This document shows positions 7,085 to 55,356 of a stretch of DNA of 64,000 bases, piece by piece. The notes beneath the pieces were generated by a model. That model saw only the letters and a program-made list of their open reading frames with translations, was not told the DNA's origin and ran no database searches. The translations under genes were made by a program, and so were the position numbers. The stretch's first letter is position 1. The number at the start of each line of letters is the position of its first letter. The stretch lies in contig JAGWYA010000003.1 in NCBI GenBank assembly GCA_018969615.1, positions 15,038 to 79,037 of the forward strand, in the 5' to 3' direction. The stretch is from Patescibacteria group bacterium. GTDB lineage: Bacteria; Patescibacteriota; Minisyncoccia; UBA6257; 02-FULL-45-10c.

Positions 7085-7137
7085 AGGAATAGTATACCGC
7101 ATCAGCCGTTTTGAGGAAAATAAAAACTCCATCTGTA

Positions 7138-9823: not shown

Positions 9824-9916
9824 GCAATGCGATTGGACAGGTGCGTAATCGGGCAATGGACCATCCCCCGCTTACGCATCTGCGCAATAGATTAATGATA
9901 AAAATATGCTGTTCGG

Positions 9917-38465: not shown

Positions 38466-38948
38466 CTAGGGGGGGGTAGTTGTTGCCGGAACCTGGCGGC
38501 TGAAGGTCAGATCGAACGCACGGGCTGAATTATTGGAAAGTCCCTTCGATTGAATATCAACGGTCTGTGTCGTGCTCGCGGTCGACGACGTGCACGTCGT
38601 CGTAAACGTCGCATTGTTCGTCAATGCCGGCGCAGGACACGCACCGCCGGCTGGACAATCCTGGCATACCTCACCGTCTACTTTAAAGAACTTATACAGC
38701 CGCCACTCGATCCCCGCATCCGCCGCAAAAACAGCCTTGGTCGAATTAACCGTATCCGTCGTCTGCCGCACCTGGTTCAGCATCAAATAGCCGGCGATCG
38801 CGGTTGCGCCAAGAAGCGTTCCTGAGAGCGCCAAAACCGTGATCAGCATCACTTGTCCTGAGCGCTTCGGTTGTTCCTCAACATAAACCCGCCGAAGGAC
38901 TTGTCCTGATCGAGGACGAAAAATGTTCATAGTCTTATTATACGGCAA
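38466..38948 (-). CDS. PilX-like minor pilin / pilus-associated protein; gene ends in a C8 homopolymer (plus-strand G8 at 38469-38476)
   Basis: N-terminal RSGQVMLITVLALSGTLLGATAIAGYLML...AVFAADAGIE resembles PilX_N domain; Thr/Ser-rich C-terminus ending PATTTPP. Confidence 0.5.
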   Translation of the reverse strand: MPYNKTMNIFRPRSGQVLRRVYVEEQPKRSGQVMLITVLALSGTLLGATAIAGYLMLNQVRQTTDTVNSTKAVFAADAGIEWRLYKFFKVDGEVCQDCPAGGACPAPALTNNATFTTTCTSSTASTTQTVDIQSKGLSNNSARAFDLTFSRQVPATTTPP

Positions 38949-38959
38949 TTTTGACCAAT

Positions 38960-38993
38960 AAAAAACCGCCCCGATCAGACCTTGGGGCGGTTT
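38960..38993 (-). terminator. Intrinsic terminator (accgcccc..ggggcggt hairpin + T-run on minus strand) after 39008-39202 gene
   Basis: Seen in sequence. Confidence 0.6.
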
Positions 38994-39007: not shown

Positions 39008-39202
39008 CTATGCGCCCCTAACTATCCACACAGAAAGAGCGCCCATTACAATAAGTGACCAAATAGTGAGGATCCATCCTTCCTTCCTATGCTCAGGCTC
39101 GGCAAGAAGCGCAAGGCCAAAAATGATCCCACTAAAACCGCCGATGGTCGCAACTAAAAGACCAACCCAGAACCATTTATGAAACAGCGTGAACTTATCC
39201 AT
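39008..39202 (-). CDS. Hypothetical 2-TM small membrane protein (64 aa)
   Basis: ORF; two hydrophobic helices. Confidence 0.45.
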   Translation of the reverse strand: MDKFTLFHKWFWVGLLVATIGGFSGIIFGLALLAEPEHRKEGWILTIWSLIVMGALSVWIVRGA

Positions 39203-39235: not shown

Positions 39236-40147
39236 TTACTGCGGCTTCACTTCCTGAATACTCGGCGTGAATAAACTCACGGTCTGCGGGATAGATATCG
39301 TACCATCTACGTTCGTACACGAAAGTGTATAAGTCGTCGTTGCCGTCGGCGTGATCGTGACCGAGCCGTTCGTCGCATTCACCGTCTGTGTATTCCCCTG
39401 AGAATCCGTAAGTTTGCAGCTCCCCGTATCCACGACCGGATCATTATACAAGCATGTCCATTGAAGGGTTGTTGATCCGTGAGTGACCACGCTTGAACTT
39501 GCAGAACCGAATCCGCATTGCGGAAGACATTTCGTATACTCGCTCACCGGCGCGGTATCAGAGGTTGCATATCCAGACTCCGAAGGATATGGAATGCGGA
39601 TCTTATACGAGTACGTGGTGTGCGGCGTAAGCCCGGTATCAGTAAAACTTGTATCAGCTGAAGTTAGCTTGAGAACAATGACATTATCCCGCAATACCGC
39701 ATAATTATGCCCATTTGGATTAATGCCGCTAAAACTTAATGAGGTACACGTTGGAGATGCCGACGAAGAAGAAAACGTTGAAGTTGAGCTTGGCGAAGAC
39801 GAACTCGGAGCGCCGCCAGAAGGAGAGTTGCAACTACTACCGGAGAAACCCGTATTGCTACCCGTCGGATTGTTAAGATAACAATTATAACTTGTTTTAA
39901 ATGGATTTAAGCCACCGCCGCAGGGGCCAATCTTAGGATTACAGATTCCCGAAGTCATAATAGTAACCGTGGTCTGAATCGTGTAAGTAACTGCAACAGC
40001 AATAGTATTTTTAACAAAATTAACAAGCGCATTAAGATTGCCTGAACCTATTGCTTTGAGTACCTGCGCTGCATGCGCCGGAGGAACCTGCACCGAAAGA
40101 AGGAGCAGGGTGACCATTAAAAAAACTGAGAGAGATTTTGTGAACAT
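39236..40147 (-). CDS. Secreted protein with signal peptide, Ser-rich linker and Ig/FN3-like beta domains (possible adhesin)
   Basis: MFTKSLSVFLMVTLLLLSVQVPPAHA signal; SSSSPSSTSTFSSSSASP low complexity; multiple Cys pairs. Confidence 0.55.
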   Translation of the reverse strand: MFTKSLSVFLMVTLLLLSVQVPPAHAAQVLKAIGSGNLNALVNFVKNTIAVAVTYTIQTTVTIMTSGICNPKIGPCGGGLNPFKTSYNCYLNNPTGSNTGFSGSSCNSPSGGAPSSSSPSSTSTFSSSSASPTCTSLSFSGINPNGHNYAVLRDNVIVLKLTSADTSFTDTGLTPHTTYSYKIRIPYPSESGYATSDTAPVSEYTKCLPQCGFGSASSSVVTHGSTTLQWTCLYNDPVVDTGSCKLTDSQGNTQTVNATNGSVTITPTATTTYTLSCTNVDGTISIPQTVSLFTPSIQEVKPQ

Positions 40148-40175: not shown

Positions 40176-40385
40176 TTACAAAATGCTGCTGCACCCCGTG
40201 AAATGCGGCTCATCATTCGCCGTCGCTGCACAACGATCAGCCGTCTGGCGTAAGTTGCTGCTATCGGTCAGCGCAGCCTTTACCGCAACCACTGTCCGCT
40301 GCACCAACATCGCTGCCGTCATAATCAAAAAACCGATCAATACCGCTAGACCTGTATTTTTAATTGCTTGTTCGTTCGTTTTCAT
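40176..40385 (-). CDS. Hypothetical small membrane protein (69 aa) with promoter motif shared with pilA
   Basis: ORF; upstream agtataccatatcc (minus strand GGATATGGTATACT) identical to pilA upstream. Confidence 0.45.
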   Translation of the reverse strand: MKTNEQAIKNTGLAVLIGFLIMTAAMLVQRTVVAVKAALTDSSNLRQTADRCAATANDEPHFTGCSSIL

Positions 40386-40441: not shown

Positions 40442-41962
40442 CTATAAGGAACGCCTCTTAATAAGTTCAGCAATGTGCGCAAGATCCAAATCAATACCAA
40501 CTGAATCTTCCCGGCGCGGATGTGCAATTGACCGGATCTTCTTATAAAACTTCTTACCCTCAGGAGATAGTTTCTGCCACCCTCGAAGATCGGCGGCGGC
40601 ACAAACCACCATGACAAGACGCGCGAGGAGTGCCCGATTAAGATCTACGAGGTCGTACGCTGCTTCAGCCGCCAGCGTCCCAAAGCTCACGATATCCTGA
40701 TTCCCCGACTCGAATGGGCGGGACAAAACCGAATGCGGGAATGATCGTTGGACCGATTCGGCAAAATACGATCCTGCGGAAATTCCCACTCCTTTCAATC
40801 CACTGTTCAACCCGGGGTCAATACCCGCAAGACTTGGCGGAAGAATGTGATTCTTATCGCTGTCCAACAACCGGTCGATCATGGTCTGTTCCATATTGGC
40901 AAGATGCGCCAGGAGGATCTTCGCAAAATCCATCCCGAGACCGATATAAAATCCGGAAAAGTTCCCGCCATGCAGTATTTTTTTTCCATCACCATCGATC
41001 AATGGGTTATCATTCGCCGAATTCAACTCCCGCGTCACCCACAGACGCAAAAGCGAAAGGAGCTCACGATGCGGACCCAGGAATTGCGGGAGGCAGCGGA
41101 TCGAATACGGATCCTGTACTTCGCCATGGATATTCTCCGTGGATTGTGCGAGCTTGCTTCCTTTTACCTGCTTTCGTAATTCCCGCGCAGCCTCCGTAGC
41201 CCCGGGATGATTTTTAAGCTCGTGAAGAAGTTCATCGAACGGATCGGTGATCCCGCCAAGCACTTCGGTGTACATCGCCGCAGCCTTTGTAAAAACCGTA
41301 AGGAGGTATTCCATATCAGAGACCACAAAAGCCGCGACTGTCGTCATAACCGAGGTATTATTCACAACTGCCAAGGCTTCTTTCGGCATAAATTCGAGCG
41401 AGGAAGCGCCGATCATTCGAAGCGCCGATTTTGCAGAAATGGCTTTTCCGTTATGGCGAACTTTCCCCTCGCCCATCAACGCTAACGCAAGACCAGAAGA
41501 AAGAACCAGGTCGCCGCTCGCGCCCAGCGAACCATAACGTGGAACGAACGGAAGCATATCTTTTGCGAGCAACCTCTCGATCACATGAATGATCTCGGGG
41601 CGAACACCCGAATACCCCTTCGCGAAACAATTTAGGCGCGCCACCATAAATCCGCGACTGATCTCATCATTGAGAAACGGCGCACTGCCTGCCGCAAGCG
41701 AATAAACAAGCTTTTTCTGATGCCGAGCAAGATCTTTCAAAGGGATCGTAAAACGAACATTGCTACCGAAGCCCGTATTCGTACCATAGATCGTCTTACC
41801 TGTTCTCAAAGAATGATCCAAAAAATGCCTGCCGCGCTTGCTCTTTTTTATCCCCCTTAAAGAAACGATAGCCGGGCCGCTATTTCTCGCGGCATGAACA
41901 AACGCCTTGATCGAAAGAGATCGTCCGTCCAATACTATTTTCTTGCCCTTCTTTTCTTTCAT
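40442..41962 (-). CDS. MIO-dependent aromatic amino acid/histidine ammonia-lyase family enzyme (HAL/PAL/TAL)
   Basis: GSLGASGDL Ala-Ser-Gly MIO-forming triad; ~506 aa typical of the family. Confidence 0.75.
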   Translation of the reverse strand: MKEKKGKKIVLDGRSLSIKAFVHAARNSGPAIVSLRGIKKSKRGRHFLDHSLRTGKTIYGTNTGFGSNVRFTIPLKDLARHQKKLVYSLAAGSAPFLNDEISRGFMVARLNCFAKGYSGVRPEIIHVIERLLAKDMLPFVPRYGSLGASGDLVLSSGLALALMGEGKVRHNGKAISAKSALRMIGASSLEFMPKEALAVVNNTSVMTTVAAFVVSDMEYLLTVFTKAAAMYTEVLGGITDPFDELLHELKNHPGATEAARELRKQVKGSKLAQSTENIHGEVQDPYSIRCLPQFLGPHRELLSLLRLWVTRELNSANDNPLIDGDGKKILHGGNFSGFYIGLGMDFAKILLAHLANMEQTMIDRLLDSDKNHILPPSLAGIDPGLNSGLKGVGISAGSYFAESVQRSFPHSVLSRPFESGNQDIVSFGTLAAEAAYDLVDLNRALLARLVMVVCAAADLRGWQKLSPEGKKFYKKIRSIAHPRREDSVGIDLDLAHIAELIKRRSL

Positions 41963-42012
41963 AAAAAATAAATATCACCCCTAACAATGATCAAATATAG
42001 TATACTATAAAT

Positions 42013-42591
42013 ATGTTTACCTTTGCGAAAATAGCCACTATCGGAGCGTGGATTGCGATCTGGGCTAGCTCATGGACGAGCAAAAAGACCCATGCAGCAA
42101 TGCCGGAACCCATGTATGCCGAAAATCCAACCCGCATCTCTCCGTGGGGAGTTATGATCTTTTTTATATTTCTCTATGCAGTCCTTTGGATCCCTTTTCC
42201 AATCGAGGCTATTTTCCCCGTTCAATGGATCCTCGTCTCTATTTTCTTTGGCTACATCCTCTTAGCCATTGGAACACTTCTAGGCGCGTGGGCGACGTGG
42301 ACTCTGGGAAAACTTGTAACATTCTCAGGCGCGATCCCGACGAACTATTCGCTCATTGAGTCGGGGCCTTATGCCTATGTTCGTCACCCTATTCAGCTTG
42401 CTGAAATTTTGATCTGGCTCGGATCATCACTGATCTTCGTCAGCGTCCTTGGCATCCTCATGGGCGCCATCCTTCTGCCCTTGATCAAGAAACAGATCCG
42501 ACTTGAGGAAAAGAAATTACTCGAGATCAATGGCGAGCTCTATCAAGTTTATACCCGCCGGGTCGGAAGCCTTTTTCTAAAACTGTGGTAA
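42013..42591 (+). CDS. Isoprenylcysteine carboxyl methyltransferase (ICMT)/phospholipid methyltransferase family membrane protein
   Basis: Multi-TM; LIESGPYAYVRHPIQLAE motif characteristic of ICMT/PEMT family; 3' end overlaps lnt convergently. Confidence 0.65.
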   Translation: MFTFAKIATIGAWIAIWASSWTSKKTHAAMPEPMYAENPTRISPWGVMIFFIFLYAVLWIPFPIEAIFPVQWILVSIFFGYILLAIGTLLGAWATWTLGKLVTFSGAIPTNYSLIESGPYAYVRHPIQLAEILIWLGSSLIFVSVLGILMGAILLPLIKKQIRLEEKKLLEINGELYQVYTRRVGSLFLKLW

Positions 42592-44096
42592 AGGAATATC
42601 ACAAGAAGCAAGAACCCGATCAGCCACTCGCCGACATAATCGTAAATGGCAACCGCACGCTGAGTAGGAACCGACAATTGATCGGATAAGATCCCATTTT
42701 TCTCGAACTCCATCCCCGCAAGAATAGATCCGTCGGGGGCGATGATGGCAGAGGGCCCCTTACGATCTGATCGCACAACGAACACATTGTTTTCAGCTGC
42801 GCGAAACTGCGCAAGAACCACATTGCGCTCACCCATCGTTGCATCACGGAACTCGGCATCCGAACCGATCGCAAAGATCACATCGGCCCGAGAACCGTCC
42901 TGGCGCGCCAAAGGAGCATTATTCAACTCAGAACAGATCAGATCTCCGATCGTTATTCCATGAGACGTAACCAGCTGATCCTGAGGGCCCGGCACATAAT
43001 CAAAGAAGGTCGTATAATATCCCCGCCGGGCAATGAACTCCGGCGTGAAATCAAGGAACGGGAAAAGGTCTCTTTTTGCATAGGCGGACGAAAGGCCTGA
43101 GTGGTCCCAGAATTCTATCTCAGCCATGATCCCCTTCCCGGAACGAAGCGTGCTGGTCCACGTAACAAAGGTGGTTCCCGCAGGAACAAATGAGTGGATC
43201 CATGATCCAAACTGATCAAGAGTACCGCTCAAAAAATCTTTTCCCTGCTGTGAGCTCGACCCATCGGTTAAAACACCTCCGACCGGATTAAAAGGATAGA
43301 TCAGAAAATCAGGCCCCTGGAACACAGCCGCGCGCAAAAGCGACTCAGTCCGCGCCGGGAAAGAAAAGGTTCCGTCAGGAGCGATCGAGCCAAAAGGATC
43401 GCTCTCACCATTAAGCTGGGCGGTTGAAATAGTGATCTGCTTTGTCGGAGCATGAACACTCTGAAGATACACCATATTTCCTGCGAATACCGCGCAAATA
43501 ATCACCGTAATGCCAATGAGTATGAAAGCGTCTTTTTTAACCCAAGAGCGGTACACAATCGCATAGGCAAAAACCGCATTGATCAGAACAAGGATAAACG
43601 AAACTAAAAGAACGCCGCCGATACCGGCAAAGGCCATAAAGAACGGAAGTGCATGCATCGTATACCCAAGCATTCCGTAGTCAAAATAAACAAGAAGCCA
43701 TTGGCGGACCATCTCGGTCGCGGTCCACATCGCGGCGAAAAGAAAGATATCGCCCAAAGGCGTTCGTGATAGCCTCCGGAAGATCCAGGAACCTAACGCG
43801 CCGAGGCATAATGAAAAAAGAGCGATTGGGATCCAAAGAAGCTGCATTGCGATCGTTACGATCTCCGCAAAGGCATACCAATGGAATTGCATAACCACGG
43901 CGAAGGCGATCCCTAACGAAAAACAAAGTCCGAGGAGAGCCCCTGCAAAAACAGCCTGCCGAAGAGAAAATCGTCTCTTGTCATACAGGATCACTGCATA
44001 GGGAACAAGCGCAATAAACGAAAGCCACCACCAATCAAGCGGATAAAATGATGCATACAGAAGCCCTGCCGACAATAAAGACAAAAGATACACCAT
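42549..44096 (-). CDS. lnt: Apolipoprotein N-acyltransferase-like protein (N-terminal polytopic domain + C-terminal CN-hydrolase domain)
   Basis: 8 predicted TM helices then nitrilase-type domain with GDLICSELNN catalytic Cys region and terminal TM. Confidence 0.7.
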   Translation of the reverse strand: MVYLLSLLSAGLLYASFYPLDWWWLSFIALVPYAVILYDKRRFSLRQAVFAGALLGLCFSLGIAFAVVMQFHWYAFAEIVTIAMQLLWIPIALFSLCLGALGSWIFRRLSRTPLGDIFLFAAMWTATEMVRQWLLVYFDYGMLGYTMHALPFFMAFAGIGGVLLVSFILVLINAVFAYAIVYRSWVKKDAFILIGITVIICAVFAGNMVYLQSVHAPTKQITISTAQLNGESDPFGSIAPDGTFSFPARTESLLRAAVFQGPDFLIYPFNPVGGVLTDGSSSQQGKDFLSGTLDQFGSWIHSFVPAGTTFVTWTSTLRSGKGIMAEIEFWDHSGLSSAYAKRDLFPFLDFTPEFIARRGYYTTFFDYVPGPQDQLVTSHGITIGDLICSELNNAPLARQDGSRADVIFAIGSDAEFRDATMGERNVVLAQFRAAENNVFVVRSDRKGPSAIIAPDGSILAGMEFEKNGILSDQLSVPTQRAVAIYDYVGEWLIGFLLLVIFLYHSFRKRLPTRRV

Positions 44097-44114
44097 TATT
44101 CGCTAAAATAAGAA

Positions 44115-44642
44115 TTATCGATCACTCAGCTTATTTTCTAAATATGCCCTGATCTCCTTTTCAATGGACTGCGAGTCGCTATAAAAAATAAGGTCTGTTT
44201 TCTGAAATCGTTTGAGTCCCTTCAAACGATCAACGACTTCCTGCGAAGAAGTTAGGAACGCACTGAGGGTATATGTAAGCATCCATTGTTTTTCAAAATA
44301 AGCCAGATGTTCAAGGTCTTCGACGATCGCGATCGTCGGCCTTCCCAAGCCGAATGCATAACCACATTCCCATGAACTGTCAGTCCCCGCCGGACCTCCG
44401 TTCTTATCCGGAACATACTCCTTCATAAAGGCAAGGACGGCATCGCAATTTTTTATTCTATCGACATCATAAAACGCGACCCCGGGCGCGATCTTCGTAT
44501 GATCATCGGGGACGCCAAGCGTTCCGGGCTCAAAAAGATCAAGCGTTCGATTAAAAAAGGCTGAATAGCGCTCGGTAAATTCTTTACGCCACAACTTAAT
44601 AGATCCTGCAAGATATAAGCTTATTTTTTTATTTTCCTCCAT
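44115..44642 (-). CDS. Nucleoside 2-deoxyribosyltransferase-like (NDT/Rcl/YtoQ fold) protein
   Basis: ISLYLAGSI N-terminal motif and GTDSSWECGYAFG (catalytic Glu context) typical of NDT superfamily. Confidence 0.55.
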   Translation of the reverse strand: MEENKKISLYLAGSIKLWRKEFTERYSAFFNRTLDLFEPGTLGVPDDHTKIAPGVAFYDVDRIKNCDAVLAFMKEYVPDKNGGPAGTDSSWECGYAFGLGRPTIAIVEDLEHLAYFEKQWMLTYTLSAFLTSSQEVVDRLKGLKRFQKTDLIFYSDSQSIEKEIRAYLENKLSDR

Positions 44643-44654
44643 AATAATTTATAG

Positions 44655-45527
44655 TTAGATTCCCAAACTTAAGATCAATCCTACAATAAATCCAAATATA
44701 TAAGTGATATAGATCATCCATTGGAATATTTCAACGCCCCTTTCCTCTAAGTGCCCCTCATGCATGTTCCACAGTATAAAGACCGGGAATATGGATCCCA
44801 ATAAAGCTATAAAATAGAATCCGCCGAAAACTAAGAGAAGCAGGAAAAATATATAAAAGGTCAAACTCAAAGCCAGCCCTTTTTGCTCCGATCCTAATCG
44901 GACTATCGAGTTTTGAATCCCGGCAGCCGCATCGTAAGACATATCAAGGGCAGCCCCTAAACAGTGTCCTCCTGCCATAAAAAGAATTCCAAGAAAAATA
45001 AGATAGGCGCCGGGCATCTTATTGATAGCTGCCGCATATCCGATCATGCTAATAAGCATGTAATGACCGACGCCTCCGAAAAGGATATCGGTAACTGGAT
45101 ACTGCTTAAACCTAAAAGGAGGGATATTATAGGCGCCAACAACTAAGATCCATACCACAACTAATAAAGCAGTAAGATTTGAAATAAACGGGAAAAGAAG
45201 AAACGCTGGAAGCAAGCTGACCGCAGCTACCGCTGAAACGCTTCGCCTTTCTTCCAGAGCGATAGTCGGCTCAAGAGCTTGCTTTCGCGGATTCCGGCGA
45301 TCAGTTTCATAATCAAAAATATCATTAAGTCCATTTAAAAAAATATTCGCCGGGACCGTAAACCATAAAAATAGAAGGAGGTACGGCAGTTCTCCAAATG
45401 ATGCGCCCTTATTTGCTAAAATGCCTCCCAATAAAAAAAATCCCGAGCTCCAAACCCAAAAATGAGGGAATCGCGAGATGCGTATGATCCGAGAAAGATC
45501 AAGGGATTGCTTTGCGGAAGATCGCAT
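44655..45527 (-). CDS. UbiA-family membrane prenyltransferase (paralog 1)
   Basis: NDIFDYETD (NDxxDxxxD) and DMSYD second Asp-rich motif; 8-9 TM helices. Confidence 0.7.
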   Translation of the reverse strand: MRSSAKQSLDLSRIIRISRFPHFWVWSSGFFLLGGILANKGASFGELPYLLLFLWFTVPANIFLNGLNDIFDYETDRRNPRKQALEPTIALEERRSVSAVAAVSLLPAFLLFPFISNLTALLVVVWILVVGAYNIPPFRFKQYPVTDILFGGVGHYMLISMIGYAAAINKMPGAYLIFLGILFMAGGHCLGAALDMSYDAAAGIQNSIVRLGSEQKGLALSLTFYIFFLLLLVFGGFYFIALLGSIFPVFILWNMHEGHLEERGVEIFQWMIYITYIFGFIVGLILSLGI

Positions 45528-45536
45528 ATGCTTATA

Positions 45537-46391
45537 TTACTGCACAAGCAGCAGTGACGCAATGAAGCCGATAACGTAATGTAGATAAATGAAATAACGG
45601 TACCACCTAACCTGATCCGTATATTTTTTTCGGAGCATAAAATGAATAAGGAAAAAAAGCGCATATGCCATACCCAAAACCATTAAAAGGGGCTGATTCG
45701 CTAGAATAAGGACCCCGGAGAAAATAAAGGAAAGAATGATGCATACGAGCAAATTACGCCCCTCAGAGCCTATAAAAACAGCTGAGGTTATAAGTCCTGC
45801 GTCTTTATCGGATCGTATATCGGCGATGGATGTATACATATGCATGGCGATCGCAAAAACAAATAAAGCGAGGAGTATCAAAAAGGGCGGGGCCTTATCC
45901 ATAGTCGCCATATAACCCATCACGCCCCATAGTGGAAAGTTAACAGCGAAGAAGAGATCCCAGAATGGCCGGCCCTTAAAACGCAAAGGGGGCATATTAT
46001 ACATGACCACAATAAGCAGCCATAGCAAAAACAATGCTTTTATTGCATTTGAAAACTGAGAAATGATCCAAAACGCCGGAACCAATGCGAAAGCCGCAAG
46101 GGTCAATAAGCTTTTCCGTTCTCCGAACGATGCGCGATGTTCGAATTCATCCTTTTTAGGATTATGAAGATCCGTTTCAAGATCATAAGCATCATTGAAT
46201 GCATAGAGAAACAAATTCGCTGGGAGGGTCAGCCAAAGCGTAAGCCAAATAAGATCAGGTGAAAATACATGTATTATATTACCGGTACCCACCTGTACAC
46301 CTAAAGCAAAAGAGCCGACCGTATAGATCCAGATCCTCGGCCTGGAAATAAACAGGATCTTTTTAAGAAATTCCATACCCGGACTAATCAA
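45537..46391 (-). CDS. UbiA-family membrane prenyltransferase (paralog 2)
   Basis: NDAYDLETD motif, PPLRFK loop shared with paralog 1 (PPFRFK). Confidence 0.7.
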   Translation of the reverse strand: MISPGMEFLKKILFISRPRIWIYTVGSFALGVQVGTGNIIHVFSPDLIWLTLWLTLPANLFLYAFNDAYDLETDLHNPKKDEFEHRASFGERKSLLTLAAFALVPAFWIISQFSNAIKALFLLWLLIVVMYNMPPLRFKGRPFWDLFFAVNFPLWGVMGYMATMDKAPPFLILLALFVFAIAMHMYTSIADIRSDKDAGLITSAVFIGSEGRNLLVCIILSFIFSGVLILANQPLLMVLGMAYALFFLIHFMLRKKYTDQVRWYRYFIYLHYVIGFIASLLLVQ

Positions 46392-47652
46392 TATGATTGA
46401 TCAAATGCCTTGTTTTCTCGGTTTTTGTTGAAAGTGCATCAACAAACTTCACCTGCGGCTTCAAGATCATCCCTTTCATCACCGCATCTCCAAGCGTTAC
46501 ATAAGACGTCAAATGCCATGTATGCATTAACGTATCGATCACCGATGCGCCAAGCTCATTATTACTAGGGACAGCGAGCTCAACAATCATTTCAGTCTCC
46601 ACACCGCCGCTCTGTAATTTCTGATAAAAATGAACCTGGTAGCGATCACCTATCGTATCAGCAAACGAAACCATGATCCGCTCGAGGTCGGTTAGTTTAA
46701 ATTCCATACCCGCGATCCTGACCACGTCCGCATTGACCCTTCCCTTCCACTGTAGAGTAGGCTTTCCGCAAGAGCACTGCGCATCGGCATACGCGAACAT
46801 ATCTCCGGTCCGATAGCGGATCAACGGCATCGCCGCATTTCCAGCATAGGTAATAACCAGCTCGCCGGTATCCAAAAGCTCAGTCGCTAAAAGCGCCGGA
46901 TGCGGATGGAACAATTCAAGATCCTTCTCAATGAGCTCTTTGCACGGAAACAAGATATACTGTCCGATCTCGGAAGAAGCGTACAAATTAACAATCTTCG
47001 CGGCAGGATAGAGCTTCTGAAGCTGTTCCCTTCGTGCGGCGGATAGCGTTTCACCGCAAAGACCGACTAAATGAAGCTTTCCGGGATCATAGTACTTCTG
47101 CACATACGGATGAAGCATAAATGCCAGTGTCGGGGTTGCAAAAAGCGCATCAGCCTCACACCGCTGGGCGATCACCGCACTGTTCGGCAAATTATAGATA
47201 TCCCCGAAAATAGGGTAAGACCCCGTCCCCGCCTCGTCGCACTGCTGAGCAAGTGTATGGCTAAAATGCTTATTGATCGGGGGGAATAAAAAGAATAATC
47301 GCTGGACCCCAAGCCCAAGCGTCGGATCAAACTGATAATTCGGGATTTTCGCATAATACGTGATCAGCGGCATCTGACTCGTCGTCCCCGAGGAATACGC
47401 CGCAAAATAGATCTCTTCACGGGGAATGTAAAGCCGCTGCAGCGGATCAGTTGCCTGAAGCTCAGAACGCTCAAGAAAAGGAAGTTTTAAAAAAATTGAG
47501 GGATCAACAAGGAGGTCAGGAGTTAGTCCTGCTTGTTCGTATTTTTTACGATAAAAAATTGCATGCGGGCTATCCCACACCATTTTCAAAACTTCCTTTA
47601 TTTTCGGAAAAGAGATCTTATCCATAAACCCTGTATCCATAGCATAACGCAA
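46384..47652 (-). CDS. PaaK-like adenylate-forming enzyme (phenylacetate-CoA ligase / F390 synthetase / CapK family)
   Basis: YSSGTTSQMP AMP-binding motif, YRTGD motif; 8-bp overlap with downstream UbiA gene. Confidence 0.7.
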   Translation of the reverse strand: MRYAMDTGFMDKISFPKIKEVLKMVWDSPHAIFYRKKYEQAGLTPDLLVDPSIFLKLPFLERSELQATDPLQRLYIPREEIYFAAYSSGTTSQMPLITYYAKIPNYQFDPTLGLGVQRLFFLFPPINKHFSHTLAQQCDEAGTGSYPIFGDIYNLPNSAVIAQRCEADALFATPTLAFMLHPYVQKYYDPGKLHLVGLCGETLSAARREQLQKLYPAAKIVNLYASSEIGQYILFPCKELIEKDLELFHPHPALLATELLDTGELVITYAGNAAMPLIRYRTGDMFAYADAQCSCGKPTLQWKGRVNADVVRIAGMEFKLTDLERIMVSFADTIGDRYQVHFYQKLQSGGVETEMIVELAVPSNNELGASVIDTLMHTWHLTSYVTLGDAVMKGMILKPQVKFVDALSTKTEKTRHLINHID

Positions 47653-47720
47653 AACGGAAGCGGAGAAAATAAAAAAGGCCCCTATGACTGTGTGTACACA
47701 ATCATAGGGGCTGTAATGCC

Positions 47721-48380
47721 TTACCAGTACCAGGACAGACTAGCCTTCGTCACGCCGCCGTCCGAATTCAGCTGACCGGCCGCGGAATTCACGCCTTTCG
47801 TTGAAAGATTGGCGAGAACTCCTTCGGTCGCGACGTCGAACGAAGCGACGACCGCCGAACGATACTTCGTCCCGTCCGCCGACTTCCAGCCGTGAAGCAG
47901 GACATCCACGCCGGCATCGAAACCGGCGTACGAAGACAGGATCCCCTGATTGTACTTTCCGGAATCCAGCTTCGACATCGGTCCGACCGCCACGGTCATG
48001 AACGTATGGAGACCGACCGGCCACCGATGCGGATCATCGAACGGATTCGTCACGAATCCGACGCGGCCGCCGACGCCCGTGAAGTTCAGCTGCTTCTGCG
48101 AAGTGGTCACCGTGCGCTGACGCACCGCGAGACCCCACGACAGACACAGCCAGCGACGGTGGAAGTCCCAGTTCAGGTCGGCGCCGCGCACCGGATCCTT
48201 TTCCTGGAGCACGGGCACGGTCTGACCGCCCATCAGGAGAGTGCTGCTGTAGCTTCCCCCCATCACGTCCGAGACCTCGAGTGACTCCTGCTTGGAGTGC
48301 TTCACCCACGACGCGAAAGCCTGGCCCGTCAGGCCGAGGCAGAGCGCAAACGCCAGCACGACCTTGGTCATGTTTTTCAT
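47721..48380 (-). CDS. Secreted beta-barrel-like protein with OMP-type C-terminal aromatic residue (…SLSWYW); gene noticeably GC-rich
   Basis: Signal peptide MKNMTKVVLAFALCLGLTGQAFA; alternating hydrophobic pattern; terminal W. Confidence 0.5.
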   Translation of the reverse strand: MKNMTKVVLAFALCLGLTGQAFASWVKHSKQESLEVSDVMGGSYSSTLLMGGQTVPVLQEKDPVRGADLNWDFHRRWLCLSWGLAVRQRTVTTSQKQLNFTGVGGRVGFVTNPFDDPHRWPVGLHTFMTVAVGPMSKLDSGKYNQGILSSYAGFDAGVDVLLHGWKSADGTKYRSAVVASFDVATEGVLANLSTKGVNSAAGQLNSDGGVTKASLSWYW

Positions 48381-48482: not shown

Positions 48483-49718
48483 TTATTTGTGCTCGGGACC
48501 TAGTAAAACCCGCGTAAATCTCTCCGGAGCGAGGTAAACACCCACAGCCTTCTCAATATCTTGGATGGTAATATCTTGAATTGCCGCCTGAACCTCCTCA
48601 TAGCCATAAGGCTTTCCCAGCGTTACCGTAGAAGAACTGGCTCCCATTATAATATTCCATGGGTTCTCAAAACGAAGCGCCAATGAGCCCAATTCCATTC
48701 TTTTTGCTTTTTCTAAAAGAGCCTCATTGCGCTTATTAGCATCTATAAGTGGCAAAGCAGTATCGATCGCTTCTTTATATTTCTCTTTTGACGTCGCCAT
48801 ATAAATAACGAATAATCCAAGGTCTGTTAACCAATGATAAGAGGCAGATGCTGAATAACACAAACCCCGCCTATCTCTAATTTCTTGAAATAAAGGAGAC
48901 GCCATCCCTCGTCCAAGCATAGTCGCGAACAGATCAAGGCACCACTTTTCTTTTATGCTTGCATTCAGGATCGGGACGGCAACATACATATGCATTTGAT
49001 TAAGCGGTCGATGGAAAATATATTCTTTTTCTAAAGGGAAATAAAGAGTCTCGTCTTTTCCCCGTTTATTCCGTTCACCGGATATCGGTGCTGTAAAATA
49101 CGAATCGAACATCCTCACTGCCGCATCAGGATCAATACGACCTGCGGTAAAAAAAGTGAAATTCGCAGAGTTATAATACTGCTTCATAAAATCAATAAAA
49201 TCCTCTCGTTGCAGGGCCAAAAGAGAGCGCTCATTTCCAAGGGTTGGATGGGCTAGAGGATGCCCCTTAAAGATAGCCTCGTAGGCAAGGTCATATAATG
49301 CACCGGAAGGATTATCCTGCTTCCTCTTTATTTCTTGCAAGATAACATTGACCTCTTTCTTGATCTTGTCCTCGGGAATCAAGGGATGCTGGATCTGCTC
49401 ACTTAAAAAATCGACTCCTCGCTCAAATTCTCTGAAAGGAACCTGGTTCAAAAAGAACGTTCGTTCCTTTGAAGTAAAACCGTTCTTAAATCCACCGACA
49501 TCCTCGATATATTCAGCAAGCGACCGCTGATCAGGAAATTTTTTTGTTCCTTGAAAAAAAAGATGTTCGAAACTATGGGCCAGCCCCGCCTCATGCGGGA
49601 GACGCTCGTCTCGCGAGCCAACATTTACCATAACACCCGAAGCGACCGAGTTTGCTTCCGCCATAGGGAATATATAAAGGGGAACGCCACTTTTGGTATC
49701 TTTTCGTATAAAACGCAT
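48483..49718 (-). CDS. M16-family (pitrilysin/insulinase-like) zinc peptidase
   Basis: HSFEHLFFQGT inverted HxxEH zinc-binding motif; 411 aa. Confidence 0.75.
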   Translation of the reverse strand: MRFIRKDTKSGVPLYIFPMAEANSVASGVMVNVGSRDERLPHEAGLAHSFEHLFFQGTKKFPDQRSLAEYIEDVGGFKNGFTSKERTFFLNQVPFREFERGVDFLSEQIQHPLIPEDKIKKEVNVILQEIKRKQDNPSGALYDLAYEAIFKGHPLAHPTLGNERSLLALQREDFIDFMKQYYNSANFTFFTAGRIDPDAAVRMFDSYFTAPISGERNKRGKDETLYFPLEKEYIFHRPLNQMHMYVAVPILNASIKEKWCLDLFATMLGRGMASPLFQEIRDRRGLCYSASASYHWLTDLGLFVIYMATSKEKYKEAIDTALPLIDANKRNEALLEKAKRMELGSLALRFENPWNIIMGASSSTVTLGKPYGYEEVQAAIQDITIQDIEKAVGVYLAPERFTRVLLGPEHK

Positions 49719-50028: not shown

Positions 50029-50547
50029 CTACGGCAACGTGCGGGCACTCACCGTGGTCTGCAAATTCACTACTGGATCAGTGAACGGCGAGCCGGCAGC
50101 CCCTGCCTGAAGCACAATAGTAATGCGCGGAGGATACGGATTCCCTGCGGTTCCGGTAAAAAGAACGAACTGCAGGTTCTTCACCAGCACATTATCAGCC
50201 GTGATCGGCTCAAACGTGGTCCCGCCATCCGCACTGCGTTCGATCGCGGATGTCGCGCTATTCACGCGATAGACCACAGAATCGTTTTGCGCATTCATAA
50301 ACTGAAGCTCGCCGTTCACGACGGAAAAGCCCTGTCCGGTCCGAACCTCACGCGCGATCTGCTCGATCGCCGAGCTGCTATTTCCTTCTGCGGCCAGGAT
50401 CGCAACGGTCTCATGCTGGGTCCGCAGAATATGAATGAACGCCCCCGTCGTGATCGCGATCACGACAAGAAAAAGCCCCATGGCAACGATCATTTCCACA
50501 AGCGTAAATCCTGACTCCCGACGAATTTTTGAGAAAAAAGAAAGCAT
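50029..50547 (-). CDS. Type IV pilin-like/pseudopilin protein
   Basis: Prepilin leader ...KIRRESG|FTLVEM; start set at ATG 50547. Confidence 0.7.
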   Translation of the reverse strand: MLSFFSKIRRESGFTLVEMIVAMGLFLVVIAITTGAFIHILRTQHETVAILAAEGNSSSAIEQIAREVRTGQGFSVVNGELQFMNAQNDSVVYRVNSATSAIERSADGGTTFEPITADNVLVKNLQFVLFTGTAGNPYPPRITIVLQAGAAGSPFTDPVVNLQTTVSARTLP

Positions 50548-50551
50548 GATG

Positions 50552-51046
50552 TTATCGCCAGTTATAGAAATAATCTTCGGCATCGACATTGAACGCCCCG
50601 CCGCCGCGCGTCGTCCAGGAAACATAAGAGGTCACTTTGATCTCATCCGCGGAGATCGTATCGATCGTGATCTTTCGGATATAGGAGGTCGTATTCCCCG
50701 TAGTGTACTGATAGAAACCGGTCACCGGATCGAAAAGCAACGGACTTCCGGTGAACGGGCTCAGTGCGGTCGCGCTGTAATCCCCCTCATAATCCCCCGC
50801 CGTGATCCCGATGTTCCACGGCTGGTTCTGTAAAACGTTCTTGTCGATCATATTCTTCACGATCTCGATCCCTTCTGAAGCAAGGTTGGAACCGACGTAC
50901 TGGCTGGTAACGATCTGCGTTTCACCCAGCGAGCTCGAGGTCAGTGAAAAAATACCGAGAAGCCCTATGATCGCGATCGTGATCGCGATCGTGGCCTCGA
51001 CCATCATCTGACCCTTTCGATCACGGAGATAGGAAAAGAAGTTCAT
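50552..51046 (-). CDS. Pseudopilin/minor pilin (atypical +1 Gln: RKG|QMMVEA)
   Basis: Leader + hydrophobic helix with Glu at +5. Confidence 0.6.
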   Translation of the reverse strand: MNFFSYLRDRKGQMMVEATIAITIAIIGLLGIFSLTSSSLGETQIVTSQYVGSNLASEGIEIVKNMIDKNVLQNQPWNIGITAGDYEGDYSATALSPFTGSPLLFDPVTGFYQYTTGNTTSYIRKITIDTISADEIKVTSYVSWTTRGGGAFNVDAEDYFYNWR

Positions 51047-51051
51047 AAAAA

Positions 51052-51567
51052 CTAGTTCGTTGAGATCTGCCCGGCGTTATTGACCTTGATCTTCACCTGG
51101 GAGGTACTCCCGGTCGCCTGCAGCGTAATGGTCCCCGACGTGATCGGCGGCGTCATAATAACGGTCGGATTTGGCGGAACAAAAAGGATATCGGTCATGT
51201 CGCTTGAGGCGAACGTAATGTTTTGATCAAGGATAATATGGGAAAAGTCTTCGGACGGTCCCGAGTAGACGTTGTCTGAGTTCGCACAATTCGCCGCCTG
51301 ATCTTTGAACAGGATCACGGTATTCGGCAGCGTGAAATGAACGCCGTAGCCGCAGGCTGCCCCGCCGCTGACATAGGTTTGCAGCGCCAGCGATTTCGCC
51401 TTTTCAATGATGCCGATCACCTGCGATTGGTCGCGGAACAGCGTGATCTGATTCTCGCCGATATGGCTATACAAGATCAGGACTGTGGAAAGAAGTGCGG
51501 TAATGCTGAGCACGACCAGTGTCTCGATCAGGGTGAATCCGCGTGTGGATGATGTGCGCCCGCTCAT
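51052..51567 (-). CDS. Pseudopilin/minor pilin
   Basis: MSGRTSSTRG|FTLIETLVVLSI prepilin motif. Confidence 0.7.
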   Translation of the reverse strand: MSGRTSSTRGFTLIETLVVLSITALLSTVLILYSHIGENQITLFRDQSQVIGIIEKAKSLALQTYVSGGAACGYGVHFTLPNTVILFKDQAANCANSDNVYSGPSEDFSHIILDQNITFASSDMTDILFVPPNPTVIMTPPITSGTITLQATGSTSQVKIKVNNAGQISTN

Positions 51568-51608
51568 TAATTCAATTTTACCACAGAAGCGGCCCGGAAC
51601 GGAGCCGT

Positions 51609-52472
51609 CTAGGAGAAGATCCGGAAATAAAGATCAAGCAGCGATTTCCCATAGAACATCAGGGTTAGCGCGCCTAAAATAATGAACGGGCCGAACGGGA
51701 TCGCATCTTTCATCTTCTTCGCACGCATAAGAATGACATACACCCCGTACACTGACCCGAGGATGAATGCGAACATCAACAAAAGCCCGATATCCGGCCA
51801 TCCGAACAGAAAACCAAGAGCGCCGGCAAGCTTGAGGTCCCCTACGCCCATCCCGCGCCCGCGCGTCACGAGGATGATCGCACCCACGAACAAGATCCCA
51901 AGGATCGCGCCGATAAAGTGATTGACCACCACGTCGCTGCGGAATCCGAACAATGCCGCAAAGCTTCCCGCGAACGATCCGGTAAACACCCCGAAGGTAC
52001 CGTTCATTTGCTGGAGTGCGATACGGCCGAAACCAAGCGCGACCAAAAAAAGGTTCAACTCGTCCGGAATGATCATCCAATAGTAATCGATCGCGGCGAT
52101 GACCAGGAATGCGAGGAATGCGAGCACCCAGAGCCATCCGACTTCGATCGAATAGATCCGCATGAACGGATCATAAAAATAAAGCGGCGTAAGGAAGATC
52201 AATCCCGTCAGGAGCTCAACAATGGGATACTGCAGCGAAAGACGCGTCTTGCAGGATCGACAGCGGCCGCGCTGGACCAAAAAGCTGACGACCGGGAGCA
52301 GCTCATACCAGGCAAGCGTCTTCCCGCAGGACATGCAGTGTGAACGCCCGGTCAGCGGCGTGAGCGCGAAAGCGGACCGCTCAGGCCGGTACCGCAAGAT
52401 CACCACGTTCAAAAAACTGCCGATACAGAGACCGAACGCAAAAAGATACGCAGGAATGAGCCACGGGATCAT
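51609..52472 (-). CDS. pilD: Prepilin peptidase (A24 family)
   Basis: N-terminal CxxC...CxxC (CMSCGKTL, CRSCKTRL) zinc motif, polytopic, catalytic Asp pair region. Confidence 0.85.
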   Translation of the reverse strand: MIPWLIPAYLFAFGLCIGSFLNVVILRYRPERSAFALTPLTGRSHCMSCGKTLAWYELLPVVSFLVQRGRCRSCKTRLSLQYPIVELLTGLIFLTPLYFYDPFMRIYSIEVGWLWVLAFLAFLVIAAIDYYWMIIPDELNLFLVALGFGRIALQQMNGTFGVFTGSFAGSFAALFGFRSDVVVNHFIGAILGILFVGAIILVTRGRGMGVGDLKLAGALGFLFGWPDIGLLLMFAFILGSVYGVYVILMRAKKMKDAIPFGPFIILGALTLMFYGKSLLDLYFRIFS

Positions 52473-52496
52473 ACGAAAGAGGCTAACGCTAATGCA

Positions 52497-52943
52497 CTAA
52501 AATGAAACGCAATAATATGACGGCGTGCAGCTGGTAACCGTGCCGGTATAATCGCCGACAACCGTTTCCTGATTGCTGTCCGCAAAGATCGAATCGCCTG
52601 CGCTGGCATCCAGCTTTGCCGCAAGAACATACCCCTGCTTATCCGCGGTACGGTAACTGTAAAGATAATCACCCCCGGTCCCCGGATCGGTCGGAAGCTT
52701 CGTGATGCCGATGCCTGCCGTCAAAAGATCGGTTAATGTGTTCGGATAGGAATTATTACGCGCATAATAAAGCTCAAGACCGTTCTGGAGCGATTTCAGA
52801 TCGGATACGCGGCGCGTGTCACGACCCCGGGAACGGAACCCGCCAAGGCCGACAAGGACCATGGACGCCAAAAGACCGATGATCGAGACAACAATCAGGA
52901 CTTCGATAAGAGTAAAGGCTTTCCGCGAGGTGCGTGATCTCAT
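52497..52943 (-). CDS. pilA: Major type IV pilin candidate (PilA-like), unusual Ala at -1 (SRKA|FTLIEVL)
   Basis: Class III signal, 148 aa, C-terminal Cys pair (SCTPSYYC). Confidence 0.7.
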   Translation of the reverse strand: MRSRTSRKAFTLIEVLIVVSIIGLLASMVLVGLGGFRSRGRDTRRVSDLKSLQNGLELYYARNNSYPNTLTDLLTAGIGITKLPTDPGTGGDYLYSYRTADKQGYVLAAKLDASAGDSIFADSNQETVVGDYTGTVTSCTPSYYCVSF

Positions 52944-52979
52944 AATGCGTAGAATAATTATTATCTGATCTTCTCTCCT

Positions 52980-53008
52980 AGTATACCATATCCCCCTTCA
53001 TTTCCCAT
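52980..53008 (-). promoter_or_regulatory. Extended -10 promoter (TGgTATACT) upstream of pilA; motif GGATATGGTATACT shared with 40176 gene
   Basis: agtataccatatcc 14-mer identical at 52980-52993 and 40417-40430. Confidence 0.5.
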
Positions 53009-53018
53009 CCACAGGAGC

Positions 53019-54227: not shown

Positions 54228-54242
54228 ACGGATGCCCGAACG

Positions 54243-55322: not shown

Positions 55323-55356
55323 ACCTCTATTGTACACTATGCCGAAAGAAAACGCT

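Follow-up and report, generated by a model that had tools for sequence, protein, structure and literature searches.

A conserved Patescibacteria gene module combines a PaaK-like ligase, an Lnt paralog and a small membrane protein with a nearly invariant C-terminal tail

Results

Gene content of the locus

We analyzed a 64,000-nt stretch of DNA from the metagenome-assembled genome of a Patescibacteria group bacterium (contig JAGWYA010000003.1), referred to below as the window; all coordinates are positions within it. The stretch contains a cluster of genes for an adenylate-forming ligase, two UbiA-type prenyltransferases, a nucleoside deoxyribosyltransferase (NDT)-like protein, an Lnt-like protein, a membrane methyltransferase and an ammonia-lyase, followed by a gene for a small single-pass membrane protein. 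A first-pass annotation made from the sequence alone had placed the first seven of these genes, and the open reading frame (ORF) map confirmed their coordinates and strands. The family assignments were likewise upheld by Pfam and NCBIfam, yet all of the proteins score below the curated equivalog cut-offs. The small protein had been overlooked. The genes considered first are the following:

46384–47652, minus strand: PaaK-like adenylate-forming ligase of the ANL superfamily; longest ORF 422 aa; weak AMP-binding Pfam match
45537–46391, minus strand: UbiA_A, membrane prenyltransferase; PF01040 at 75.7 bits (cut-off 34.2); GC content 42%
44655–45527, minus strand: UbiA_B, paralogous prenyltransferase; PF01040 at 96 bits (cut-off 34.2)
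44115–44642, minus strand: NDT/Rcl-like protein with the nucleoside deoxyribosyltransferase fold; with the two UbiA genes it makes up a cassette
42549–44096, minus strand: Lnt-like integral-membrane protein of the CN-hydrolase fold, with LNT_N and CN_hydrolase domains
42013–42591, plus strand: ICMT/PEMT-family membrane methyltransferase; PEMT at 52.6 bits (cut-off 25), ICMT at 33.7 (cut-off 24)
40442–41962, minus strand: MIO-dependent aromatic amino acid ammonia-lyase or aminomutase; PF00221 at E 3e-139; Ala-Ser-Gly triad
40176–40385, minus strand: small single-pass membrane protein of 69 aa ending in HFTGCSSIL; ORF directly downstream of the lyase gene
39236–40147, minus strand: secreted Cys-rich protein with a signal peptide and a C-terminal Ig/PKD-like domain (Ig-like protein below); candidate acceptor or partner

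Conservation of the module between lineages

The locus was compared among 27 distinct Lnt-like lineages (<90% identity), namely the window and 26 others. The comparison loci, numbered L001, L002 and onward, were fetched from other genomes and metagenomes by way of homolog contexts, a genome scan with a ligase profile, a metagenome scan with an Lnt-like profile, and independent searches for NDT-like and UbiA proteins. The named records among the lineages belong to Candidatus Paceibacterota, Nomurabacteria, Pacebacteria and “Patescibacteria group,” and in the data searched the Lnt-like family and its module are confined to Patescibacteria. The Lnt-like protein of the window, which is recorded at NCBI as a hypothetical protein (locus tag KGO95_02340), has five close homologs at 31–51% identity, and the next matches are canonical Lnt proteins at ∼25%. 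The closest relatives of the window module are L001 and L002 (49–51% identity).

The ligase gene lies next to the Lnt-like gene in each of the 22 lineages whose contig leaves room for it, and the small protein's C-terminal motif, described below, is present in 26 of the 27. An ICMT/PEMT gene was found in 16 lineages, with two copies in L002 and L007 and a 438-aa form in the L003 group. The MIO lyase gene is present in 15 lineages and absent from 12, and UbiA genes are present in 7 and absent from 20. The surroundings of the module vary. The window and L001 have pilus genes and LigA, L003 has transketolase and PfkB, L009 has S6 and SSB, and L038 and L039 have IF3. As the flanking genes differ between lineages, the linkage within the module is not just inherited synteny, and the earlier proposal that these genes are functionally linked is borne out by the associations of the ligase, lyase and methyltransferase genes with the Lnt-like gene. 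The invariant core of the module is the PaaK-like ligase, the Lnt-like protein and the small single-pass protein.

The five genes from the ligase to the Lnt-like protein had been described as one compact operon. They are not the unit that is conserved, since the UbiA-UbiA-NDT trio is optional; it occurs in 4 of the 27 lineages and is absent from L001 and L002. The first-pass annotation had named a lack of co-localization in related genomes as evidence against its proposal, yet all five genes are found together again in L034 and L038. A fragment, L031, groups the trio with the genes for the Lnt-like protein, the small protein and the methyltransferase, and lacks only the ligase side, where the fragment ends. 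The first-pass annotation also stated that it knew of no described pathway with this gene set, and our searches agree: neither the small protein nor this gene combination is described in the curated family libraries (Pfam, NCBIfam) or in the literature searched. Literature searches returned nothing on Patescibacteria with Lnt or on UbiA with NDT, and nothing relevant on the candidate phyla radiation (CPR) with UbiA. Among the loci examined, none showed an lgt or lspA gene, with no specific search made for them.

A small membrane protein with a nearly invariant tail

The small protein has a Lys-rich N-terminus and a single hydrophobic helix, and its orthologs are 61–91 aa in length. Orthologs were found in every related locus, and in the alignment their last nine residues are nearly invariant, with the consensus [H/Q/K/Y/N]-F-x-G-C-[S/N]-[S/T]-[I/V]-[I/L]-stop. 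The pattern F.GC[SN][ST][IV][IL] followed by a stop codon gave 34 matches in the 1.04 million six-frame codons of all DNA fetched, exactly one per module locus with the exception of the short fragments L007 and L020. The same pattern gave no match in reversed sequences and none in the four UbiA/NDT loci that consist of the cassette only. All small proteins have exactly two Cys, spaced 10–17 residues apart, and the Cys of the C-terminal motif is at position −5 in every sequence.

The helix is flanked by 71 Lys/Arg on its N-terminal side and 33 on its C-terminal side in 22 sequences, in a count that scores each N-terminus as one extra positive charge. This bias in the sequences suggests that the small protein is oriented with its N-terminus in and its C-terminus out, in which case the tail would share a compartment with the nitrilase domain of the Lnt-like protein. 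We consider it likely that the small protein is the substrate or the acyl shuttle of the module.

Scans against Pfam and NCBIfam gave nothing significant for the small protein, the Ig-like protein or two further proteins described below, x64 and x133. A single-sequence search with the 69-aa protein among 1.84 billion representatives recovered only three true relatives, this method being too insensitive to size the family. A match of P0086 to the “LTDSSxLR” segment of the small protein (E 6e-23) was discarded: P0086 is a 1011-aa ORF made of 16 tandem units of ∼63 aa, and its score is a cumulative repeat artifact that does not identify a homolog.

The gene for the Ig-like protein adjoins the small-protein gene, in either order, in most loci. 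Its orthologs are 250–360 aa in length and share a conserved C-terminal P-x-I-[KQ]-E tail, and the ortholog in L004 has weak PKD/Ig matches.

An Lnt paralog with a substituted catalytic residue

The Lnt-like protein does not reach the equivalog threshold of TIGR00546 (116.6 against a cut-off of 132.9). Its AlphaFold 2 model (predicted local distance difference test score 91.7) was aligned over its full length by Foldseek to 24 Lnt structures, those of Escherichia coli and Pseudomonas aeruginosa Lnt among them, with template modeling scores of 0.71–0.79. The model displays the Lnt architecture of eight transmembrane helices and an extracytoplasmic nitrilase-fold domain.

E. coli Lnt uses a thioester mechanism with the catalytic triad E267-K335-C387 (PMC5500888; PDB 6nwr). 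The window protein has F269 at the position of the catalytic Glu and keeps K341, C388 and E390, which changes the triad to Phe-Lys-Cys. The first-pass annotation had asked whether the E-K-C triad is intact and had named a missing catalytic Cys as evidence against its proposal; the triad is not intact, as an invariant Phe replaces the Glu, and the Cys is present. The substitution extends to the family, where the W-P-E motif is replaced by I-Y-P-F in all eight aligned members; in a comparison with canonical Lnt proteins, Phe was found in 6 of 6 family members and Glu in 27 of 27 canonical sequences. I-Y-P-F is also seen in loci that were found independently of the motif (L008, L009, L034, L038, and L039). 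Other changes, in E. coli numbering, are Tyr388 to Ser, the loss of Trp415 and a hydrophobic residue in place of Gly342, with Glu389 kept; Tyr388 and Trp415 hardly vary among canonical Lnt proteins. Both groups have the Y-x-K and P-F motifs, and the nitrilase domain of the Lnt-like proteins contains an insertion of ∼25 residues relative to canonical Lnt. The Lnt-like protein thus keeps the nucleophile, while the base and part of the active-site surroundings, which we take as the acyl-donor pocket, are remodeled.

Ligase, lyase, and methyltransferase

The translation start of the ligase is probably the ATG at 47640 or the one at 47625. Its best NCBIfam matches are the DVU_1553 family and PaaK at ∼62 bits, far below the cut-offs, and it reaches 57.6 bits with TIGR02155 (PaaK phenylacetate-CoA ligase), for which the cut-off is 646 bits. 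A profile built from five orthologs finds its nearest solved relatives in the PDB among PaaK structures (9s3l and 4r1l) and aryl-acid ligases (AjiA1 and 6siw). The ligase orthologs are 42–66% identical.

All MIO orthologs contain the Ala-Ser-Gly triad. At the positions that reportedly switch the selectivity of MIO lyases, Ser-His in HAL, the enzymes of the window, L001 and L002 have Ser-Leu, and they have N-F-S-G-F in place of the N-F-H-G-E of HAL; the HAL-like residues are retained in most of the remaining lineages. The window clade thus has Leu where HAL has His83 and most orthologs have His, and Gln takes the place of Glu414 throughout, as in PAL and TAL. The enzyme scores 370.7 bits with TIGR01225 (cut-off 539 bits) and below the cut-off of every equivalog model, and among PDB entries it matches HAL, tyrosine aminomutase and AdmH with almost the same score. 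A HutH identity is ruled out by the TIGR01225 score, the Leu at His83 in the window and the Gln at Glu414. Ser-Leu or Ser-His together with Gln at the Glu414 position fits none of HAL, PAL and TAL, and the enzyme may be a lyase or a mutase.

As had been suggested, the lyase and the ligase could plausibly supply an activated aryl acid. FlxA/FlxY and BagA/BagE are paired in this way, and the window lyase and ligase match the TAL and PaaK-like models of the Flx and Bag systems weakly, at scores far below the cut-offs.

Residues 58–186 of the methyltransferase align to the C-terminal core of Tribolium ICMT (5VG9) and include G-x-Y-x-x-x-R-H-P and E-E-x-x-L. The score with the isoprenylcysteine-specific equivalog NF040696 falls short of the cut-off (34.5 against 160). 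Four loci have a longer version of the gene (L003, at 7440–8756, and L019, L024, and L027), whose 438-aa product begins with a long N-terminal membrane extension and has the PEMT/ICMT domain as its C-terminal third. The four also share x133, a conserved 133-aa protein to which no family could be assigned. L039 has no PEMT gene, and a Methyltransf_3 gene of the caffeoyl-CoA/catechol O-methyltransferase type lies between its Lnt-like and UbiA genes (9360–9986, plus strand), which may point to an intermediate of the phenolic or catechol type there.

The UbiA-UbiA-NDT cassette

Both UbiA paralogs keep the two Asp-rich motifs of the family (NDxxDxxxD and DxxxD), and N66, D70, D74, D191, and D195 are invariant in both paralog groups. 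The NDT/Rcl-like protein shows the NDT fold and retains the conserved acidic motif, catalytic Glu included. UbiA_B directly follows UbiA_A in all four module lineages with the trio. The GC content of the trio is 42–44%, compared with 47–50% for the rest of the module and 52% for the whole window, and in L001 and L002, which have no trio, the ligase gene directly abuts the Lnt-like gene.

The full trio occupies four different positions in the module, in the window and in three distant lineages. In L034 it comes after the Lnt-like gene on the same strand, in L038 it comes after the Lnt-like gene in the order NDT-UbiA-UbiA, and in L031 it is on the opposite strand and reads in the same direction as the genes for the small protein and the methyltransferase. 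L039 has a module with a single UbiA gene. Stand-alone copies of the trio or of a UbiA and NDT pair are found in L035/L036 and L033/L037. Five of the seven distinct UbiA/NDT contexts are therefore inside the module, which argues for a functional but accessory link, and we conclude that the trio is an optional and probably mobile cassette. Its absence from L001–L004 and its low GC content had made an unrelated, window-specific insertion a candidate explanation, which was rejected when the trio was found in three other distant modules.

The best NCBIfam models of both UbiAs are PRK12875, PRK13595, and PRK13105. UbiA_A scores 181 bits and UbiA_B 153 bits with PRK12875, below its cut-off of 205 (the cut-off of PRK13105 is 217). 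PRK12875 corresponds to a haloarchaeal gene located between crtI and cruF (397 bits), and PRK13105 to an actinobacterial gene that follows crtB, crtI, and lycopene-cyclase-domain genes (469 bits). UbiA_A is 31% identical to the haloarchaeal crtI-cruF prenyltransferase (E 6e-30), while remaining below the PRK12875 cut-off, and the two share the motifs S-R-P-R-x-W and N-D-x-x-D-x-x-x-D-x-x-N-P-K-K. By sequence, both UbiAs are nearest to the lycopene elongase clade (LyeJ/CrtEb; PRK12875, PRK13105), their closest annotated relatives; the closest characterized relatives add C5 units to an isoprenoid double bond. Unlike lycopene elongases, the cassette UbiAs score below 205 bits and come as a paralog pair with an NDT-like protein, and no crt genes (crtB, crtI, or cruF) were found in any cassette locus examined.

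The first-pass annotation had suggested aromatic prenylation of the UbiA/MenA type and a phosphoribosyl-polyprenyl-phosphate (DPPR) branch fed by the NDT-like protein. The placement next to the lycopene elongases contradicts the former, and the latter found no support, the DPPRS models scoring 23–29 bits. The equivalog scores are 27 for UbiA (TIGR01474, cut-off 275), 17 for MenA (NF004751, cut-off 264), and 29 for DPPRS (NF008978, cut-off 207). Together with the lycopene-elongase placement, the NCBIfam scores led us to reject UbiA, MenA, CtaB, DGGGPS, and DPPR synthase as identities of the paralogs.

Different UbiA genes (28–30% identity), together with GT2 genes, abut the module in L008 (5472–8619, minus strand) and L024 (9032–10785, minus strand), and L008 also has a polyprenyl synthase gene. 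In Actinobacteria, Lnt is paired with Ppm1, a GT2 polyprenyl-phosphate mannose synthase, and the arrangement in L008 and L024 recalls this pairing. The stand-alone pair of a single UbiA and an NDT-like gene in L033/L037 (9119–10525; Ca. Pacebacteria GCA_021734945.1) has a TspO/MBR gene as its divergent neighbor. In Rhodobacter the carotenoid cluster includes the gene for TspO (CrtK), and this neighbor echoes the lycopene-elongase affinity of the UbiAs.

Transcription units and flanking genes

The spacing given by the first-pass annotation is correct: the ligase gene overlaps UbiA_A by 8 bp and the following gaps are 9, 12, and 18 bp. The overlap requires a TTG start of UbiA_A. The start in the NCBI record is an ATG five codons downstream (279 aa), which gives a 7-bp gap instead. 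The ICMT/PEMT gene runs toward the Lnt-like gene, and the 3′ ends of the two share 43 bp; a convergent overlap of this kind (40–48 bp) is kept in L001, L002, L005, L006, and L007. Three further features lie at the edges of the region:

47678–47711, minus strand: hairpin resembling an intrinsic terminator, with a 15-pair stem, 8 G-C pairs and a T-run; directly upstream of the ligase gene
39008–39202, minus strand: x64, a 64-aa two-helix membrane protein; last gene before the terminator; module membership uncertain
38960–38990, minus strand: hairpin CCGCCCC...GGGGCGG with a T-run after it; identified in the sequence itself

The hairpin at 47711–47678 is terminator-like and would mark both the end of the upstream gene and the 5′ boundary of the ligase operon. 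With this strong hairpin just upstream of the ligase gene, the five genes from the ligase to the Lnt-like protein can form one transcription unit. The hairpin at 38960–38990 likely represents the 3′ end of the unit with the lyase, small-protein and Ig-like genes; it was not listed by the terminator scan, as its loop is longer than 8 nt. The counts from the promoter and terminator scan were at or below shuffle expectation, the 15-pair hairpin at 47711–47678 being the sole convincing item. The region reads as three units: ligase to Lnt-like gene, methyltransferase alone, and lyase to x64. A homolog of x64 (49% identity) lies beside the small-protein gene in L008, and none was detected in the other loci.

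Beyond the 15-pair hairpin lies a gene for a 219-aa signal-peptide protein with the C-terminus ...SWYW (47721–48380, minus strand). Its GC content is 61.8%, compared with 52% for the window and 43–47% for its neighbors, and the strongest terminator hairpin of the region comes directly after it. A 30%-identical homolog has the same position in L001, and the N-terminus has a weak match to the NCBIfam “BLB8/JUQZ-1 family” (E 6e-4). Next comes a gene for an M16 (insulinase/PqqF-like) peptidase (48483–49718, minus strand), just upstream of the module, which is present in the window only and not in related loci. It probably does not belong to the module but could have a processing role in the window. 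A type IV pilus cluster follows (50029–57087, minus strand), with pilins that carry N-methylation motifs, the prepilin peptidase PilD, PilC (T2SSF), and two T2SSE ATPases. This cluster is syntenic with L001 and directly adjoins the module in both. A link between the pilus and the module was considered and dropped, as the flanking genes differ in other lineages.

On the other side of the module, positions 38466–38948 (minus strand) encode a protein of 160 aa that has a single hydrophobic helix and matches no family. It is 69–74% identical in L001 and L002, above the module enzymes (49–67%), and it is also found near the module in L013 and L014 (48%). The Nomurabacteria contig L009 has a reverse transcriptase gene (RVT_1; 7081–8103, plus strand) beside S6/SSB and ∼2 kb upstream of the module, which may come from a group II intron or a retron.

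Discussion

The module consists of enzymes of known families, and its logic resembles that of Lnt and Dlt; the combination and the small protein are undescribed in the databases and literature searched. The Lnt paralog has the fold, the Lys, the Cys, Glu389 and the Y-x-K and P-F motifs in common with Lnt of the Lgt-LspA-Lnt system (TIGR00546; PDB 5N6H, 5N6M, 6NWR), and it probably works through a thioester acyl-enzyme, as Lnt does. Unlike canonical Lnt, the paralog has Phe in place of Glu267, and its constant partners are an ATP-dependent ligase and a small protein dedicated to the module.

The closest mechanistic precedent for the module is DltX. The Dlt machinery (DltA, DltC, the MBOAT protein DltB, DltX, and DltD) likewise combines a cytoplasmic adenylase, a membrane acyltransferase and a small single-pass protein, with the same operon logic, and DltX, acting downstream of the adenylase DltA, carries the acyl group transiently on its conserved extracytoplasmic C-terminal motif (PMC13653941). 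The two systems have no homologous proteins, however. The module is without a carrier protein or an MBOAT, and its tail is G-C-S-S-I-L, not the DltX motif. The acid handled by the module is probably not D-alanine, and we see the likeness as an analogy of mechanism and not as membership of the Dlt system.

MIO lyases and adenylating ligases are also combined in the flexirubin (FlxA/FlxY), bagremycin (BagA/BagE) and photoactive yellow protein (TAL and pCL) systems. The lyase/ligase product of the last of these ends as a thioester on a protein Cys. Unlike such aryl-acid starter modules, the module described here has no polyketide, aryl-polyene or photoactive yellow protein genes and is without the lyase in 12 of the 27 lineages. 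The selectivity residues also differ, being His-Leu in TAL and Ser-Leu or Ser-His in the module lyase.

The interpretation we favor, tentatively, is that the locus encodes a Patescibacteria-specific module for acyl transfer at the cell envelope, i.e., a system of post-translational modification. An invariant adenylating enzyme, a thioester-forming fold and an invariant tail predicted to be extracytoplasmic together point to an acyl-transfer system centered on the tail. Gene content, co-occurrence, motif invariance, folds and active-site substitutions are observed; from these we infer the chemistry as follows. The MIO enzyme, where present, would convert an aromatic amino acid to an aryl-acrylic acid, or to a beta-amino acid if it is a mutase. 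The ligase, judging from its family, would adenylate this product or another carboxylic acid, and in about half of the lineages the acid is probably the product of the MIO enzyme. We speculate that the invariant C-terminal G-C-S-S tail of the small protein receives the acyl group in ester or thioester linkage. A protein of 61–91 residues would be completed before its export, so that its tail could be briefly open to cytoplasmic enzymes. In the predicted N-in/C-out orientation the small protein would then carry the acyl group to the outer face, as DltX does with D-alanine.

At the outer face, the Lnt paralog would take the acyl group on Cys388 and hand it to an amine. The candidate acceptors are the secreted Ig-like protein, the small protein itself, and a wall or lipid amine. 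Loss of the Glu base may be tolerable if the donor is pre-activated, for example as a thioester or ester on the Cys or Ser of the tail. The ICMT/PEMT enzyme would methylate a membrane-embedded intermediate, and the UbiA-UbiA-NDT cassette would add an isoprenoid decoration in some lineages, including the window; both would act on membrane-embedded intermediates at the cytoplasmic face. A more specific version, which we regard as possible but doubtful, is that the Lnt paralog without its Glu base was re-tooled for an ATP-activated acyl group that is not a fatty acid but is derived from an aromatic amino acid and sometimes prenylated and methylated, and that crosses the membrane on the Cys/Ser tail of the mini-protein to reach a secreted surface protein or the wall.

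Several points weigh against an acyl-transfer module. Every chemical step and the identities of the acid and the acceptor are inferred, not demonstrated. The cytoplasmic ligase and the extracytoplasmic Lnt domain require a membrane-crossing intermediate, which is postulated only, and the module contains no MBOAT, carrier protein or transporter. The lyase and methyltransferase genes are absent within 10 kb in several lineages (there is no lyase in L012–L017), and as the lyase can be missing, the acid is not necessarily aromatic. A disulfide may link the two conserved Cys and leave no free thiol, and with the Glu lost, the Lnt paralog could be something other than an acyltransferase, e.g., an amidase or a protein with a binding or scaffold role. 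For the small protein, the predicted topology comes solely from charge bias. Finally, one of the two search patterns of the metagenome scan was the IYPF motif, which makes the loci from that scan a biased subsample.

The small gene has the size of a precursor gene and adjoins enzymes of the tailoring type, and it could instead encode the precursor of a lipopeptide or pheromone similar to the ribosomally synthesized and post-translationally modified peptides (RiPPs). The N-terminal helix would then be a leader or signal, and the C-terminal part would be released as a signal or toxin. We find this unlikely, and give no higher rating to the chemistry it would involve, in which the Lnt paralog would N-acylate the cleaved peptide with the acid that the ligase had activated, the ICMT-like enzyme would turn its C-terminus into a methyl ester, and prenylation would be optional. 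The F-[TSG]-G-C stretch does resemble a site of lipobox-type cleavage, between G and C, and N-acylation, and C-terminal carboxylates are targets of ICMT-type methylation. M16-family peptidases are leader peptidases in the maturation of pyrroloquinoline quinone and yeast a-factor, and one is encoded just upstream of the module in the window, but in the window only, and no protease or exporter is conserved in the module. Furthermore, the tail is invariant although the enzymes are only ∼30% identical, which fits a mechanistic handle better than a diversifying peptide, and the ICMT active site is cytoplasmic whereas the Lnt domain faces outward. The cytoplasmic location of ICMT-type sites also conflicts with the predicted extracytoplasmic tail in another proposal, a resemblance to eukaryotic CAAX-type lipidation (prenyltransferase, Rce1/Ste24, and ICMT) noted in the first-pass annotation. 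According to this logic the UbiAs would prenylate the tail Cys of C-S-S-I-L, the residues after it would be removed, and the ICMT homolog would methylate the prenyl-Cys carboxylate. One part of the analogy stands: there is a dedicated protein with a conserved Cys near its C-terminus, it has beside it an ICMT-family gene with RHP and EE motifs in 16 of the 27 lineages, and UbiAs were recruited in 7. The Cys is at −5 and not at −4, however, and no CAAX, CPBP or Ste24 protease is conserved in the module. The prenyltransferases are optional membrane proteins of the UbiA type, lycopene-elongase-like and absent from 20 of the 27 lineages including the closest relatives, and we know of no UbiA-family protein-Cys prenyltransferase. 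As CAAX-type logic would also leave the ligase and the Lnt paralog, the invariant enzymes, without a role, we consider it improbable.

A role in remodeling of membrane lipids also seems unlikely to us, slightly more so than a peptide product. The Lnt paralog and the PEMT-family enzyme would then act on the head groups of scavenged phospholipids, for example by N-acylation or N-methylation of phosphatidylethanolamine (PE), the products would be unusual N-acyl, aryl or prenyl lipids, and the small protein would be a mere subunit or regulator. Canonical Lnt binds PE as its acyl donor, PEMT enzymes methylate PE, and PE is seen in the matched Lnt structures. Patescibacteria are reported to be without fatty-acid synthesis and to rely on host lipids, which would suit such a role, as would the Actinobacterial Lnt/Ppm1 pairing and the UbiA, GT2 (L008 and L024) and polyprenyl synthase (L008) genes that join the module. 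Lipid remodeling leaves unexplained why the small protein co-occurs with the enzymes, why its tail is invariant and why its gene is paired with that of the Ig-like protein, and the Tyr388 and Trp415 positions, which are taken to serve the phospholipid donor, are replaced. That the genes are unrelated housekeeping neighbors (canonical Lnt, HutH, PaaK, and the UbiAs of quinone or heme synthesis) is effectively excluded. Every protein does belong to a well-known family, but all equivalog models are below cut-off, the catalytic Glu of Lnt is lost, HAL His83 is Leu in the window and Glu414 is Gln, the UbiAs are not of the UbiA, MenA or CtaB type, and the adjacency persists across 27 lineages despite differing flanks.

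Patescibacteria (CPR) make up a large share of bacterial diversity and are mostly uncultured episymbionts with almost no lipid biosynthesis. The module bears on the way in which these organisms construct and decorate their envelope. It offers several experimental handles: an invariant eight-residue tail on a protein of ∼65 residues, a natural Glu-to-Phe paralog of Lnt, and a soluble ligase and lyase amenable to substrate assays in vitro. If the Lnt paralog was indeed re-tooled for an aromatic-derived acyl group, which we rated as doubtful, this would be a fatty-acid-independent lipidation or decoration of surface proteins in organisms unable to make fatty acids. If the small protein is the shuttle or acceptor of an acyl group, the module would be a second case of a DltX-type mini-protein acyl relay and would add a new type of reaction to the Lnt/nitrilase fold, and it might explain how surface proteins are anchored or modified for attachment to the host.

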